64,000 nucleotides of DNA from Chitinophagales bacterium (GTDB lineage: Bacteria > Bacteroidota > Bacteroidia > Chitinophagales > Chitinophagaceae), in NCBI GenBank assembly GCA_038249665.1, contig JBBSDF010000006.1, forward strand, positions 17,685 through 81,684, given 5' to 3'. The translations under genes and the position numbers were made by a program. Of the stretch, positions 9,298-12,960 are shown piece after piece (positions within the stretch are counted from its first letter, which is position 1; each line of letters begins with the position of its first letter). The notes below the pieces were generated by a model that was not told where the DNA came from, ran no database searches, and worked only from the letters and a program-made list of their open reading frames with translations.

Positions 9298-9432
9298 CGT
9301 AGAATTACGCATAACTGAATCGGAACTACCCCCGCTTTTTTACCGGTAATGTACGAGTGCGACAGTAATTCTATATGTGTTAAAAAAGAGCAAAGACGCT
9401 ATTGTTTAGCGACATAAAGCATTGCATCTTTG
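9298..9432 (+). promoter_or_regulatory. Promoter of ncRNA unit A with conserved upstream elements
   Basis: CGTA-N4-TACG 9298-9309; TACGA-N6-CAGTAATT 9352-9370; TTG 9402-9404; 20-bp spacer; CATCTTTG 9425-9432 (variant of the Bacteroidota -33/-7 TTTG/TAnnTTTG promoter). Confidence 0.7.
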
Positions 9433-9436
9433 CGTC

Positions 9437-10000
9437 AGAAGTTGATTGATAGAGATTAAATATCAATCATTGTCCAAAGATCCTAATTAACCCAAAAAGT
9501 GTTTTCCAATATCCAACTAAGAAAAGCTGTAAAATTCAATATCAGTCAACTTCTACTTTTAAAAAGATACATATCGATCATATTTTATCCCTTTGAAAAA
9601 CCAATAAATCAATATCCTGCTTATGCTCTAACAGGCGACGATAGCACCCGTTTTGAAATCCAGTATTTTGAAAAAATCCTTATCCGGTACACAACGAAAA
9701 CCAACCAAAACCAACATCCACATGCCTATGCTGCCAATACAGCGATGATGGCGAAACAAAGAACAACTCAAATCCTGTAAAAGACCAAAAAACCAAGCCA
9801 ATTATCCTACAGCCTATGCTGCCAACCACAGCGATGATGGCAAAGACCGTTTAAACTGAAACCAGGACACATTATTTGCGCCAGCCATAGCTGGTAAAGC
9901 GAAACCAAATCCTGAAAAGCCGATTGCTAACATCAACAATTGGTAAAATTGTAAACTTCCACAGCCTCTTTGCAACAGCAAATTCCTGTGGAAGTTTTTT
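9437..10000 (+). ncRNA. Paralogous structured ncRNA, unit A (about 564 nt)
   Basis: Starts AGAAGTTGATTGATA, complementary to TATCAGTCAACTTCT 9540-9554; three stem-loop modules; CTGAAACCAGGA 3' domain at 9856; ends in a terminator; no conserved ORF. Confidence 0.7.
9953..10000 (+). terminator. Terminator of unit A
   Basis: aaacttccacag/ctgtggaagttt stem plus T-run. Confidence 0.8.
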
Positions 10001-10152
10001 ATAAACGCATTTTTTAAATCAGTTGTTAGCTATTTAACGAATGTAGTCGCATTTCCTACTACAAAATCACGATTACATTCACGACAGATAAATAGCCAAA
10101 ATTCACTAAGAGATTTGCTGATTGTCCTATTTTTTAAGATAATTATACAACC

Positions 10153-10160
10153 CATCTTTG
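10153..10160 (+). promoter_or_regulatory. -7 box of ncRNA unit B
   Basis: CATCTTTG 3 bp before AGAAGTTG, as in the other units. Confidence 0.5.
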
Positions 10161-10163
10161 CAT

Positions 10164-10490
10164 AGAAGTTGAAGAGTATTAACCATCATTAAAATCTTGC
10201 CGGATTGTTATTAGATTCCCAAAAATGAATATTATTAAATGAAGCCCGTTTAAATTCAAATTCTATGAAAACCAAAGGTTTGTATCTCCTTCAACTTCTT
10301 TAATAGTAAAAATTTAAAAATAATATAGTCTTTCAAATTTTGGCGCTAACGCCGCTATCTATTTCATTGCAACGATTTAGATCTTAACCAAGTATTTCGT
10401 CTGAAACCGATAAAACACAAAACATCACCCTCCCTACAAACAATTGGCTTCCGCAGTTTCTGCCACAACAGAAATTGCGGATTTTTTTTT
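10164..10490 (+). ncRNA. Divergent paralogous ncRNA, unit B (about 327 nt)
   Basis: AGAAGTTGAAG 10164-10174 perfectly complementary to CTTCAACTTCT 10289-10299; CTGAAACC at 10401; terminator 10450-10490. Confidence 0.55.
10450..10490 (+). terminator. Terminator of unit B
   Basis: tccgcagtttctg/cagaaattgcgga 13-bp stem (one G-U) plus 9 T. Confidence 0.85.
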
Positions 10491-10813
10491 CGAATTTTAA
10501 CGTTTTACTCAGGATCAATTTCTTAATTGAATTTTTATACTCAATCTGTCCGTTTATTTCAATTAACGAATTGAATCGGATTCACATCAACCTTTCAAAC
10601 TCCATTTTATTTTTGGGATAAAGATTTAAAATATTTGTTGAATGGCAATGTGCGGCCCTTATAGTTGAAAAGAAAGGGTTAGAGAGTTTGCTGGCAAAAA
10701 CAGAGCTGAGTTAACAGTTATAAACCCTTTTGTAGTTATTAATGGAACCAACAATCGATAAAAAAAACTCAATTAATCACCATCCGACTATAAGCTGGGG
10801 ATACTGCGTGTTT

Positions 10814-10821
10814 TATCTTTG
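10814..10821 (+). promoter_or_regulatory. -7 box of ncRNA unit C
   Basis: Canonical TATCTTTG 4 bp before AGAAGTTGATTGATA; no TTG at the 20-bp spacing. Confidence 0.6.
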
Positions 10822-10825
10822 TGGT

Positions 10826-11208
10826 AGAAGTTGATTGATAGAGAAGATATCAATCATTGTCCAAAAATCCTGATAAAACCGGTCAAGTTTTTCCAATATC
10901 CAAACTAAGAAAAGCCGTAAAATTCAATATCAGTCAACTTCTACTTTTAAAATGTAAAAGAAATACAATGACGAAAACAACGCTAACCTATCAAAACGAT
11001 CTTATATAAATTTTTCTAGATCATTAAAACCATTTTAATCGGATGGTCTTGCAAACGAACCTTACATCCAATACCTTAAAACCAATCTTTTATCCATCAT
11101 CCTTTTAGTACGCCATCTACGATGTCGTATTGTTGAAAATCCATTTAAAACCAACCACGAGTTGGACAAAACTGAACAAAACCGTCCTCTTCTGAAGGGC
11201 GGTTTTTT
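10826..11208 (+). ncRNA. Paralogous structured ncRNA, unit C (about 383 nt)
   Basis: Same 5' domain (10826-10840 pairs with 10928-10942), several short hairpins in A/C-rich linkers, terminator 11178-11208. Confidence 0.65.
11178..11208 (+). terminator. Terminator of unit C
   Basis: aaaaccgtcct/agggcggtttt stem (one G-U) plus T-run. Confidence 0.8.
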
Positions 11209-11416
11209 ATACAGAATAGGTTTTATAAAATACCAGGTTGATGATTTGGGTAACATACAATACCCATCAAATCAAATATTATCAATAAGTATTCGTGGGT
11301 ATCATTAGTCCAACTTTACTGCAAGGTAATTTTACCTTTGGCGTGATAAGCAGTGTTTCAAAGCCTTTCAGTACTAATTTATTAAATTCAACCTTGTTAA
11401 ATTAAGCCTTCACCAT

Positions 11417-11551
11417 CGTATTTCTACGTAATAAATTTAAGGGGTTTTATCATTAAAACCATGCAGATAGTACGATGTCGGCAGTAATTACTTCATTACA
11501 ATAATTTAGCAATATTGCTCTTGTGCGGCATTTAAAAGCACCGCATCTTTG
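11417..11551 (+). promoter_or_regulatory. Promoter of ncRNA unit D with conserved upstream elements
   Basis: CGTA-N4-TACG 11417-11428; TACGA-N6-CAGTAATT 11471-11489; TTG 11521-11523; 20-bp spacer; CATCTTTG 11544-11551. Confidence 0.7.
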
Positions 11552-11728
11552 TATCAGAAGTTGATTGATAAAGACAATATCAATCATAGAATATCCAAAC
11601 ATCCAGAAAAAGCCAAACGTTTCTACAATATCCTAAATAACAGAAAGACCGTTTAAAATTCAATATCAGTCAACTTCTACTTTTTAAAAAAATAATAGAA
11701 TATCCAAATATCCAGGAGAAGAACTAAA

Positions 11729-11925
11729 ACCAATATCCGACCTATGCTGTAAGAAGCGATGATGGTCAAAAACCAACTGATCCAAATCCTACAAAAGACA
11801 AAAAACCAATATCCCGACTTATGCTATAAAAAGCGATGATGGTCAAAAACCAGGAAGGTCCAAATCCTACAGCGGACAAAAAACCAATATCCGACTTATG
11901 CTGTTAAAAGCGATGATAGTCAAAC
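11729..11925 (+). repeat. Three imperfect tandem repeats, period 76-78 bp, within unit D
   Basis: ACCAATATCC(C)GAC(C/T)TATGCT-N-AAGCGATGAT(G/A)GTCAAA starts at 11729, 11805 and 11883. Confidence 0.85.
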
Positions 11926-12184
11926 AAAAGCCAACGAATATCCAAACATCCAACACATCTGCGTTGTCCAATACAGCAAAGATGGAAAACCAAAACACGG
12001 TCTGCAGAAGGCCACCCGTAGATTTCCTTTATCCTAAAGCCTATGCTGCCTACCACCAGCGATGATGGCGAAAAACGAAACACTGAAACCAGGAACAACT
12101 CATTTACTGCAGAGTTTTACTCTGAATAGTAAAATCTGATCCTGAAAAACCGACAACTAGTGTTTAAGTTGGTTCAAAGCATTC

Positions 12185-12230
12185 ACTTCCACAGCAGGTA
12201 CTTCAAAATACCAACGTTGTGGAAGTTTTT
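12185..12230 (+). terminator. Terminator of unit D
   Basis: acttccacagc/gttgtggaagt stem (one G-U) plus T-run. Confidence 0.8.
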
Positions 12231-12380
12231 ATTGTAGGGTGATAGATGGTATAACCATTACATATTTAAAGATCATCATCAGATGCTACTGAAAATTTAC
12301 GTTTTTCACCAAAGGCAAGGCTATAAAGCGTTGTACCCTGTTTTTTAGGCTCAAAACTACCCTCCTCAAAACAAATGCAG

Positions 12381-12515
12381 CGTATATTTACGTGTCCTAT
12401 TTGAGTAGCACTACGCCACAAAAAACAGTTGATATACGATGCGGGCAGTAATTACTTCATCCTGAAAAAAGAGCAAATTCGCGCTTGTTTACTTTTAAAA
12501 AGCATTGCATCTTTG
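12381..12515 (+). promoter_or_regulatory. Promoter of ncRNA unit E with conserved upstream elements
   Basis: CGTA-N4-TACG 12381-12392; TACGA-N6-CAGTAATT 12435-12453; TTG 12485-12487; 20-bp spacer; CATCTTTG 12508-12515. Confidence 0.7.
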
Positions 12516-12519
12516 TGTC

Positions 12520-12960
12520 AGAAGTTGATTGATAGAGATTAAATATCAATCATCGTCCAAAATCCTGATAAACCAAAAAAAGTGCTTCCAATATCCCAAA
12601 CCGTAGGTTAGAAAGCCATTAAAATTCAATATCAGTCAACTTCTACTTTTTTAAAAAACAATACCAATATCCAATAGAAAGTGACCATTGACCAATATCC
12701 TTTAAAAAACGAAAAGTTAGAAACCAATATCTAATTAAACCGAACCGATCCAATCCAATCCTTACAGAAGACCAACGACCAATATCCAATTAAACCAAAC
12801 AGCATTCTTACCCTTCGTAAAATGAATCTGAAACCAGGAACAACTTATTTACTGTACTGAGCCCCCTCAGCAATAAAAAATTCCTGAAATGCGGCAGTGG
12901 CCGCAAAAAACATCAACTTCCACAGTAGGTTTGCGCGGCAAATTTCTGTGGAAGTTTTTT
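12520..12960 (+). ncRNA. Paralogous structured ncRNA, unit E (about 441 nt)
   Basis: 5' domain 12520-12534 pairs with 12630-12644; AATATCC-rich middle; CTGAAACCAGGA at 12828; terminator 12915-12960. Confidence 0.7.
12915..12960 (+). terminator. Terminator of unit E
   Basis: aacttccacag/ctgtggaagtt stem plus T-run; insulates the downstream gene. Confidence 0.8.

Follow-up and report, generated by a model that had tools for sequence, protein, structure and literature searches.

A tandem array of structured RNA genes in Chitinophagaceae, possibly specifying protein decoys

We report a tandem array of five promoter-to-terminator units (positions 9437–12960, + strand, of the window, i.e. the whole 64-kb stretch of DNA analysed) in a freshwater bacterium resembling Ferruginibacter. 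The array lies in a 3.7-kb gap flanked by two housekeeping genes and comprises four clear copies (A, C, D and E) and one decayed copy (B). In our judgement there is an even chance that the array represents one undescribed, abundant family of structured RNAs of Chitinophagaceae acting as a protein decoy; the architecture of the transcripts suggests the decoy role, in which they would engage an RNA-binding partner. On global post-transcriptional control in Bacteroidota, descriptions to date are, to our knowledge, confined to gut Bacteroides and to RRM proteins and short sRNAs of the seed type, and we know of no classical RNA chaperone or decoy system (Hfq, CsrA, ProQ) in the phylum. A conserved, abundant, multi-site RNA across environmental Chitinophagaceae offers a concrete handle on that control.

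The five units lie where a preliminary description of this DNA had placed them, and the hairpin plus T-run that it assigned to the end of each was recovered in every case by terminator scan, folds and 3' alignment. Unit lengths range from 327 to 675 nt. Three covariance models were used: R1 for the 5' domain, R2 for the 3' domain and R3 for a hairpin module of the intervening body. Unit A (9437–10000, 564 nt; R1 122 bits, R2 151 bits, fold z -3.05) consists of a 5' domain (9437–9562), modules at 9619–9645 (degenerate), 9724–9752 and 9812–9841 (R3 matches at 9611, 9716 and 9804), and a 3' domain with the terminator (9856–10000). Unit C (10814–11208 including its -7 box, TATCTTTG, at 10814–10821; R1 116 bits, promoter and 3' alignments) has its 5' domain at 10826–10950, a short body devoid of modules, and a terminator at approximately 11180–11208. 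The longest, unit D (11556–12230, 675 nt; R1 98.7 bits, R2 136.5 bits, repeats D3/D4), carries four modules at 11739–11767, 11816–11844, 11892–11920 (77-nt period) and 12039–12069 (R3 matches at 11732, 11809, 11886 and 12031) between its 5' domain (11556–11686) and 3' domain (12083–12230). Unit E (12520–12960, 441 nt; R1 118 bits, R2 133.5 bits) has its terminal domains at 12520–12652 and 12828–12960, and motif positions placed four exact copies of the 9-mer CCAAUAUCC and zero hairpin modules in its body. All of these features are on the + strand.

The claim of five paralogues stood for A, C, D and E; B proved to be a degenerate copy only. Unit B (10153–10490, +, including the -7 box CATCTTTG at 10153–10160) scored 17 bits with R1 (E 0.027, filters off) and retains only this box, the ends of the closing helix, which runs from AGAAGTTGA at 10164 to 10299, and a terminator at 10450–10481 followed by a T-run, as read from sequence, terminator scan and fold. 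Within B we found zero exact CCAAUAUCC, no hairpin module at E<=0.01 with R3, and no metatranscriptome cover. Judging from its sequence, B is a decaying copy and not a full paralogue.

Upstream of the array, on the same strand, is a gene for a PLP-dependent enzyme with a CBS domain (cystathionine beta-synthase-like; 7845–9200, PF00291 and PF00571), for which the terminator scan located a separate terminator at 9239–9266. Downstream is a periplasmic binding protein gene (Peripla_BP_2, PF01497; 12889–13788, +), which in fact probably begins at an ATG near 12992, past the terminator of unit E; aldolase and accD genes come next. The neighbours checked by Pfam are metabolic genes: as previously stated, mobile-element and cas genes are lacking beside the array, and the search of the window genes revealed no RNA-binding-protein gene in the neighbourhood and no nuclease or dedicated protein gene adjoining it.

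Primary-sigma promoters of Bacteroidota carry a -7 box TAnnTTTG and, 19–21 nt upstream, a -33 TTTG or TTG; measured against this general-knowledge consensus, each unit has its own promoter of the Bacteroidota type (TTG, 19–21 nt, (C/T)ATCTTTG) as well as an intrinsic terminator. Each unit had been described as beginning just 3' of a (C/T)ATCTTTG box, and this arrangement was confirmed in the sequence, with the box lying 4 nt from AGAAGTTGA in A, C, D and E and 3 nt in B (the latter read directly from the sequence). The string ATCTTTG-N4-AGAAGTTGA has exactly four exact matches in the 64 kb, namely A, C, D and E; allowing up to three mismatches gave five matches versus a chance expectation of 1.27. 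Units compared from several genera have (C/T)ATCTTTG 3–5 nt 5' of AGAAG and ..CTCTTG 19–21 nt upstream, and an alignment of 20 promoters showed that this architecture is kept across genera.

The spacers, earlier regarded as unrelated, are not wholly so: A, D and E are each preceded by roughly 100 nt of homologous promoter DNA, as evidenced by repeat families D1/D7 and the promoter alignment. The promoter region of A (9352–9436, +; D1/D7) contains TACGA..GTAATT, an inverted repeat AGAGC..GCTAT overlapping the -33 TTG, and the -7 box CATCTTTG at 9425–9432. That of D (11471–11555, +; D1) contains TACGATGTCGGCAGTAATTAC, the palindrome AGCAATATTGCT and CATCTTTG at 11544–11551, and that of E (12435–12519, +; D1 and D7), with CATCTTTG at 12508–12515, is nearly identical in the relative L036. 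The promoter of C is without the conserved upstream elements. The conserved inverted repeat and a TACGAT..GTAATTAC element upstream of the promoter look like candidate sites for a common transcription factor, and such elements point towards the controlling signal.

A 5' domain of 125 nt is common to A, C, D and E (covariance-model E 1e-18 to 1e-23); on these units R1 gave 98.7–122 bits on the + strand versus 23–35 bits on the - strand, and together with a repeat search this upheld the homology of the 5' segments noted earlier. A 15-bp helix that hardly varies in sequence and begins at nucleotide +1 closes the domain. Across 80 homologues this helix showed 32 one-sided changes, every one of them an A to G opposite U that leaves the pair intact; the resulting G-U pairs occur on the + strand only, so that the argument previously made from G-U pairing for a + strand RNA holds at the level of the family. 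In addition to these changes, the 5' domain showed one compensatory pair. Since the helix sequence is almost invariant, its support comes from G-U-compatible changes rather than from true covariation, and its conservation could equally reflect sequence-specific recognition. A conserved U-run resembling an internal terminator immediately follows the helix, and the GAAGUU/AACUUC pairing found in the helix is present again in the terminator stem.

The 3' domain is composed of three hairpins, the last of which is the terminator, and displays strong covariation. R2 returned 81 matches at E<=0.001, including a handful of weak opposite-strand ones. In alignments that were built with covariance models and are therefore biased towards the modelled structure, 91.8% of cells were paired versus 78.3% in shuffles and 37–49% when slid. 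Compensatory changes occurred at 34 of 34 pairs (275 cells versus 62.5), counts that do not represent independent events since many of the copies are paralogues.

Between the two domains lies a body of variable length that is A/C-rich and G-poor (15% G), with the enriched words AUCC, CCAAUAUCC and GCGAUGAU and A-rich linkers such as AAAACCAA. A set of 101 non-redundant bodies contains 108 copies of the 9-mer CCAAUAUCC; the motif is for the most part predicted to sit in loops or unpaired stretches, and exact CCAATATCC in the 64-kb window falls nine times out of nine on the + strand, within units A, C, D and E. The second element is a 29-nt hairpin module, GCC-UAU-GC...GC-GAUGAU-GGC, present in 0–7 copies per unit, in which covarying stems flank an asymmetric, invariant internal loop (UAU/GAUGAU). 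The loci hold 165 copies, of which 150 were aligned (137 distinct rows, R3); the outer helix was 100% paired (C-G 86/U-A 50, C-G 130/U-A 6 and G-C 132/A-U 5), in agreement with an independent count. Modules are arranged in tandem with a period of 54–58 or 77 nt, separated by linkers that are conserved rather than variable. When a metagenome scan was seeded with the module alone, 45 of the 80 loci listed proved to have a 5' domain upstream of it in the same orientation. However, 52 of the 101 bodies have no module, so it is not the sole functional element.

Lake metatranscriptome contigs of relatives (80–95% alike, unstranded) cover units A, D and E, and zero such contigs cover the spacers. Their depth reached bin means of up to 405, with one contig at 511, and in X20 it was of the same order as that of the nearby aldolase gene. 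The contigs are short, abundant and uniform in depth across the 5' domain and several modules; hence full-length forms exist. No ORF is common to the units, as had been proposed: the longest on the + strand (93 aa, GTG start) is confined to unit A, and the module periods (56 and 77 nt) are not divisible by three. Compensatory changes, lack of a shared ORF and the presence of contigs (unstranded, from relatives) are the properties of structured non-coding RNA. With the separate promoters and terminators, they provide good support for transcription of the units as structured + strand RNA and sustain the original view of independently transcribed genes.

A repeated covarying hairpin with an invariant loop, combined with a repeated 9-mer, fits well with a sponge or scaffold. 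We propose that hairpin and 9-mer modules would bind a single RNA-binding protein (an RNA partner being less likely), and that the transcripts would titrate or scaffold this partner as CsrB/RsmXYZ or CrcZ do, at a dosage dependent on the number of modules, on gene copy number and on shared promoter control. The RNA is probably shielded from end-dependent decay by complete pairing of its 5' end and by the structure at its 3' end, a protection that would account for its abundance. More tentatively, and with the balance leaning somewhat against it, the array might be the RNA half of an undescribed, global protein-titration system of Bacteroidota, Csr/Crc-like but built from unrelated parts, in which a new protein would recognise CCAAUAUCC and the UAU/GAUGAU module and output would be tuned by the shared transcription-factor site, by copy number and possibly by regulated read-through at the closing helix and U-run with which the 5' domain ends. 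Such a system would rank as a major regulator of freshwater Chitinophagaceae, since transcripts of relatives are abundant in lake metatranscriptomes. The repeated module is an obvious bait for a new RNA-binding protein.

The strict conservation of the 9-mer and its mostly unpaired setting would also suit trans-acting base-pairing regulators, in which C-rich 9-mers (CCAAUAUCC, AUCC) act as seeds for G-rich GGAUAUUGG sites in mRNAs or other RNA and the array provides dosage, as in Qrr, LhrC and FopS. C-rich seeds are indeed used by RsaE/RoxS, but Bacteroidota mRNAs are generally without G-rich Shine-Dalgarno sites. We consider base pairing unlikely: the complement of the 9-mer has zero exact matches in the 64-kb window, near matches outside the array (21 versus 16 expected for the whole window) are close to chance, 380–675 nt is long for seed sRNAs, and both the covarying invariant-loop hairpin and the conserved 5' and 3' domains are left unexplained. 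Multicopy seed-bearing sRNAs are known in Bacteroides, where the RbpB-associated paralogues of the FopS family of B. thetaiotaomicron pair with susC mRNAs; FopS is 65–70 nt, with a single-stranded 5' seed and a terminator, is dispersed and restricted to Bacteroidaceae, and its authors state that it was deposited in Rfam (PMC11697453). The array RNAs share with FopS multicopy paralogy within Bacteroidota and canonical -33/-7 promoters, but are tandem, three-domain RNAs of 380–675 nt in Chitinophagaceae. Membership of FopS was excluded on the basis of the missing Rfam match, unit lengths of 327–675 nt, a 5' end paired from +1 and the three domains.

Searched against Rfam 15, neither the window nor L213 or L221 had a match that reached the gathering score, and the hits admitted at E<=10 were all of chance level; we also found no paper describing the family, in keeping with the suggestion that it might be undescribed. 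A new Rfam family would improve the annotation of metatranscriptomes, in which such reads are now unassigned. Like CsrB/CsrC and RsmX/RsmY/RsmZ, the sRNAs of Proteobacteria that sequester CsrA/RsmA, the array RNAs are abundant and non-coding, with their own promoters and terminators, several paralogous genes, and short repeats that vary in number and are carried by small hairpins or lie next to them. Several paralogous Csr/Rsm sRNA genes occur per genome, and the rsmX genes are tandem in some Pseudomonas. The array repeats are CCAAUAUCC and the UAU/GAUGAU hairpin, in contrast to GGA in hairpin loops, and are accompanied by conserved structured 5' and 3' domains; membership of CsrB/Rsm was rejected, as the bodies are G-poor, GGA-rich sequence would be on the untranscribed strand and there is neither sequence similarity nor an Rfam match. 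CrcZ, CrcY and CrcX are Hfq/Crc-sequestering sRNAs of Pseudomonas, and the CrcZ motif, AAnAAnAA, is bound by Hfq. The resemblance to these A-rich, G-poor decoys extends to repeated unstructured motifs and sometimes neighbouring paralogues, but the array repeats CCAAUAUCC and a structured hairpin, with no Rfam match. CsrA is not known in Bacteroidota (PMC13370968).

The module resembles a kink-turn or box C/D motif in its asymmetric internal loop, the AUGAUG of its long strand (cf. box C, RUGAUGA) and its two short helices. This candidate was rejected by sequence: the short strand is an invariant UAU without GA and the opposite strand reads CUAU, not CUGA, which makes the tandem sheared G-A pairs of a K-turn impossible. 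A type III toxin-antitoxin (ToxI-like) assignment was likewise rejected, as Peripla_BP_2, aldolase and accD lie downstream rather than a ToxN/AbiE-type endoribonuclease and the Peripla_BP_2 neighbour recurs in 36 loci.

Length, structure, high expression and discovery by comparative genomics or metatranscriptomics are shared with OLE, ROOL, GOLLD and raiA, large orphan RNAs of bacteria whose functions have come to light only recently, if at all, and to which the smaller, internally repetitive and tandem-amplified array family has no homology. That the units are precursors of small RNAs cut from the 55–77-nt repeats, or partners of a dedicated complex as in OLE, ROOL and GOLLD, is distinctly improbable. 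The regular tandem hairpin-linker repeats, the high abundance and the conserved terminal domains would agree with it, and GAAGUU/AACUUC at both ends could join ends or molecules; against it are the uniform contig depth from the 5' domain through several modules, linkers conserved unlike those of CRISPR or guide arrays, and the absence of an adjacent nuclease or dedicated protein gene and of Rfam large-RNA matches.

In the window and 100 genome loci, R1 identified 139 true-strand 5' domains at 65–127 bits, versus 31–44 bits on the opposite strand, and no copies were found in viral contigs. The loci are almost all from Chitinophagaceae MAGs (Ferruginibacter, Ginsengibacter, Terrimonas, Puia, Hanamia). 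The locally amplified paralogous family initially described was thus substantiated, and is moreover family-wide, syntenic and built of three structural parts. A syntenic site with 1–4 units between two conserved genes is common: of the 100 related loci, 47 had the CBS-domain gene, with 79 of 79 units co-oriented, and the Peripla_BP_2 gene in 36, with 59 of 59. This fixed synteny and orientation, and the terminator-like U-run, could be taken to indicate a leader or attenuator of the Peripla_BP_2 gene or a 3' UTR product of the CBS-domain gene. Such a cis-acting role is very improbable, given that about half of the loci lack these neighbours within 8 kb, that the upstream gene and every unit are separately terminated and each unit separately promoted, and that 1–5 serial copies make little sense as a leader.

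Repetitive or mobile DNA (MITE- or REP-like) would be consistent with the closing helix, a 15-bp inverted repeat around about 95 nt, and with copy numbers that differ between relatives. This reading, along with that of small protein genes, has next to no probability left and is largely refuted by the single orientation at the syntenic site, the conserved promoter and terminator, RNA-level compensatory and G-U-only changes, expression in relatives, and the lack of a nearby transposase, a shared ORF or viral copies; MITE or REP identity was rejected on orientation relative to both flanking genes and on promoter conservation. Comparison with relative L036 revealed decay of a unit and a module indel of 88 nt. 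Local duplication and decay add and remove units and modules, and the array is a clean case of birth-and-death evolution of RNA genes and their modules.

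The intergenic stretch of 3.7 kb at 9298–12960 of the window contains no credible genes and lies between a gene for a PLP-dependent enzyme with a CBS domain (7845–9200, + strand) and a periplasmic binding protein gene (12889–13788, + strand). The sequence bore out the five + strand units of the preliminary description (A, 9437–10000; B, 10164–10490; C, 10826–11208; D, 11556–12230; E, 12520–12960), each with a (C/T)ATCTTTG box followed after 3–4 nt by AGAAGTTGA and each ending in a hairpin and T-run. The N4 form of this box-to-start pattern has exactly four matches in the 64 kb, with unit B carrying the N3 form. 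As had been described, homologous segments keep no reading frame (no ORF is common to the units), and no transposase, integrase, RT or cas gene was found among the array neighbours. A repeat search recovered the 5′ segment common to A, C, D and E, and the family model scored these four at 99–122 bits; the claim of five paralogues failed for B, a remnant with 17 bits. The spacers had been taken as unrelated, which is correct only in part: about 100 nt of upstream DNA is common to A, D and E, and each "spacer" includes some conserved promoter DNA. The ORF called mechanically for the binding protein begins at 12889, within the terminator of unit E; a start at the ATG around 12992, downstream of a -7-like box (CTACCTTTG), is more probable.

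Across genera, the promoters display the layout TACGAT, N7, GTAATTAC, .., AAAAAGAGCAAT, N, CGCTCTTG, N19–21, (C/T)ATCTTTG, N4–5, AGAAG, and the last two promoter boxes agree with the Bacteroidota -33/-7 promoter. A sigma-70 promoter scan was set aside, as that model is not informative for this phylum. Alignment of the promoters placed conserved upstream elements at 9352–9436, 11471–11555 and 12435–12519 (+ strand); the element TACGAT-N7-GTAATTAC is located at about -65 to -90 and recurs across genera. A second element, also recurrent across genera, is an inverted repeat (AGAGCAAT..GCTCTTG); neither element is present in units B and C of the window. The inverted repeat overlaps the -33 box, and its halves change together with the symmetry kept (GAGC..GCTC versus GGGC..GCCC). 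The upstream elements are probably sites for a common regulator.

To find relatives, one-genome-per-species contigs were searched for exact matches to an 18-mer taken from the 3′ side of the helix that closes the 5′ domain, resulting in 100 genome stretches. MAGs account for nearly all of them, under the labels Ferruginibacter, Ginsengibacter, Terrimonas, Puia, Hanamia, Chitinophagaceae or Chitinophagales, and the sole isolate is Ferruginibacter sp. HRS2-29, a cultured strain that carries at least three units; a few are chance matches or probably mis-binned contigs. A contig labelled as a Citrobacter freundii MAG (QFQQ01000053.1) has the 18-mer in A/C-rich, AUCC-rich sequence (regions 2105–2232 and 4391–4408) with a weak 5′-domain match of 34.7 bits, and is probably a Chitinophagaceae contig put in the wrong genome bin. 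R1, a covariance model of the 5′ domain built from 80 non-redundant copies, identified 139 true-strand copies in the 100 genome loci and the window, scoring 65–127 bits on the unit strand versus 31–44 bits on the opposite strand; 42 R1 matches lacked the seed word, about 30 of these being true-strand. Two to four units occur within 8 kb in 28 of 97 locus-strands, spaced 590–1430 nt apart, and most units measure 240–700 nt between start and terminator. The same CBS-domain enzyme gene is present in 47 loci and the same binding-protein gene in 36; in the 21 loci with both, the intergenic gap of 491–4133 bp holds 1–4 units. The units are on the strand of these neighbours in every case (79/79 for the enzyme, 59/59 for the binding protein).

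The 5′ domain spans about 125 nt and is closed by a 15-bp helix, AGAAGUUGAUUGAUA/UAUCAGUCAACUUCU, that is paired from nucleotide +1 and almost invariant among 80 copies; all 32 one-sided changes were A to G opposite U, so that pairing is kept on the + strand only. Inside it are AUCCAAAnAUCC and a small variable hairpin presenting CCAAUAUCC. Alternatively, nucleotides 8–17 can pair with AUAUCAAUC in a local hairpin, where full compensatory change was seen at one position (A-U 55, G-C 22), and two alternative 5′ folds are therefore possible. In more than 90% of the copies the 3′ strand of the closing helix leads directly into a U-run (alignment columns 207–221; window sites 9548–9562, 10936–10950, 11672–11686 and 12638–12652, + strand). 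Helix and U-run together resemble an intrinsic terminator whose loop is 90 nt long; a short isoform of about 125 nt is possible, with regulated read-through set by the local hairpin versus the extended helix. A variant unit from a metagenome (L221, 2660–3220) has a normal promoter and 3′ domain, and its 5′ domain is shrunk to a short simple hairpin of closing-helix sequences with two mismatches.

The 3′ domain, about 140 nt, consists of a hairpin closed by CCAGG/CCUGG, a second hairpin and the terminator AACUUCCACAG..CUGUGGAAGUUUUUU. Its covariance model had 81 matches, a handful of which were weak and on the opposite strand. Pairing was retained in 91.8% of cells, versus 78.3% in shuffled and 37–49% in slid controls, with compensatory changes in 34/34 pairs. 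The terminator stem, AACUUCCACAG/CUGUGGAAGUU, shows sequence conservation between loci and contains again the GAAGUU/AACUUC hexamers of the 5′ closing helix (9437–9451), as seen in the terminators at 9955–10000, 12185–12230 and 12915–12960 (+ strand); the RNA ends, or two molecules, could pair, or both helices could be recognised by a single protein.

The body between these domains is composed of 40% A, 23% C and 15% G, and is enriched in the 9-mer CCAAUAUCC, found 108 times in 101 non-redundant bodies. A second enriched element, usually 1–4 nt past the 9-mer, is the hairpin GCC-UAU-GC[loop]GC-GAUGAU-GGC. The model of this module, R3, identified 165 copies in the genome loci, all 165 on the unit strand, and seven in the window (three in A, four in D); the longest tandem has seven modules with a 56-nt period. 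Across 137 distinct copies, the five modelled pairs are standard pairs without exception (shuffled controls, 93.9% paired; slid, 13–64%), and the three outer pairs switch by double changes (C-G 86/U-A 50, C-G 130/U-A 6, G-C 132/A-U 5). The internal loop and its two adjoining G-C pairs showed zero variation. Pairing of CCAAUAUC with GAUGAUGG, which offers 7 of 8 possible pairs, was rejected as the main helix because the partner change for GG to AG falls next to UAUGC and not in the 9-mer. A module-only scan of metagenomes yielded at least 118 stretches, and 45 of the 80 module-seeded loci listed had a 5′ domain upstream on the same strand; the two are therefore linked independently of the route of discovery. 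In one metagenome locus (L213), 9-mer and hairpin together form a perfect 56-nt repeat that occurs at least five times, and L221 has four modules with another covarying outer stem, GGGUU/AACUC. Several metagenome matches to the module pattern were dismissed as chance, lying in GC-rich coding DNA (L206, L253).

At the gathering score of Rfam release 15, the whole window, L213 and L221 were without match, and at E ≤ 10 the array had chance matches alone (STnc350, mir-2070, snoZ40). No relevant paper emerged from our literature search, which covered sRNAs of Chitinophagaceae/Ferruginibacter, RNAs in freshwater metatranscriptomes, sponges of Bacteroidota and the motif strings. FopS RNAs are dispersed seed sRNAs of 65–70 nt from Bacteroidaceae, whose deposit in Rfam was stated by the authors (PMC11697453); size, dispersal, host range and the lack of an Rfam match rule out this identity. 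Csr/Rsm decoys, also rejected as an identity, present GGA, whereas the transcribed strand of the Chitinophagaceae RNA is G-poor. The long strand of the module loop, AUGAUG, resembles box C, but a K-turn was ruled out on sequence grounds because the short strand is UAU and not GA, and the module therefore lacks the defining sheared G-A pairs. Guide RNAs of dCas12f adjoin rpoE-dcas12f genes (PMC13472631); the array has no such neighbour, and this candidate was dropped. A mobile or defence element was ruled out, as the neighbours include no gene for a toxin, RT, Cas protein, transposase or integrase, and the fixed orientation and site exclude a MITE. No phage copies were found: the 18-mer occurs in two viral contigs, neither matching R1, and the degenerate module pattern gave about 100 unfiltered matches in viral contigs, which were taken as uninformative.

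Expression was assessed from unstranded freshwater and lake metatranscriptome contigs, 80–95% alike, which represent relatives and not this exact organism. Over units A, D and E these short contigs reach bin means of up to 405, with one contig at depth 511, and cover of unit C is weak; the spacers at 10208–11509 and 12812–13679 had no metatranscriptome cover. In the deepest run, the RNA bins of 131–183 were of the same order as the nearby aldolase gene at 302, a depth that gathers reads of many taxa at the threshold used. Since the contigs carry no strand, the units were assigned to the + strand from their promoters and terminators, from the scores of the models and from the G-U pattern. Contigs joining the 5′ domain to downstream modules demonstrate that read-through past the U-run occurs, and "joints" skipping 173–252 nt reflect relatives with fewer modules.

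The units are structured, abundant RNAs, independently promoted and terminated, that combine a conserved frame with modules varying in number, and we are almost certain that they constitute a genuine new structured RNA family. It is undescribed in the libraries searched, family-wide, syntenic, highly expressed and modular, and wider than the preliminary description saw; the sponge or scaffold function proposed there is still one that we infer. Most likely, the RNA titrates or scaffolds an RNA-binding protein, a mechanism in which we place intermediate confidence. The main rival, base-pairing regulation through the 9-mer toward GGAUAUUGG-like sites, appears improbable: an invariant loop between covarying stems, in up to seven regular repeats beside the invariant 9-mer, would be the signature of a specific binding site and not of a seed, and this signature favours titration or scaffolding. 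Capacity would then depend on how many modules and genes are present and on a common transcription factor. A 5′ end paired from +1 and a structured 3′ end would slow end-dependent decay, which fits the abundance of the RNA. Because AUCC/CCAAUAUCC sites remain numerous in module-less units (the module is absent from 52/101 bodies), the minimal site may be the 9-mer, with the hairpin as enhancer; alternatively, there may be two ligands. By kind, the family would be a new variant of multi-site decoy sRNA, of importance to Bacteroidota RNA biology and to the annotation of freshwater metatranscriptomes.

The nearest relative compared, a Ferruginibacter MAG (L036) about 88% alike as read from the alignment, has two intact units at the same site (4560–6480, - strand, aligned with window 9298–12990). 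Its A-like unit is without one 88-nt module that the window has at about 9703–9790; the D-like unit is only a decayed remnant and the E-like unit is intact. These differences therefore represent local gain and loss, that is, birth and death of units and modules at an old, vertically inherited site. In unit D of the window, a divergent hairpin, CAUCUGCGUUGUCCAAUACAGCAAAGAUGG, occupies 11957–11992 where a module would sit, with AAGAUGG replacing GAUGAUGG; it has the appearance of a module in decay or of a different type.
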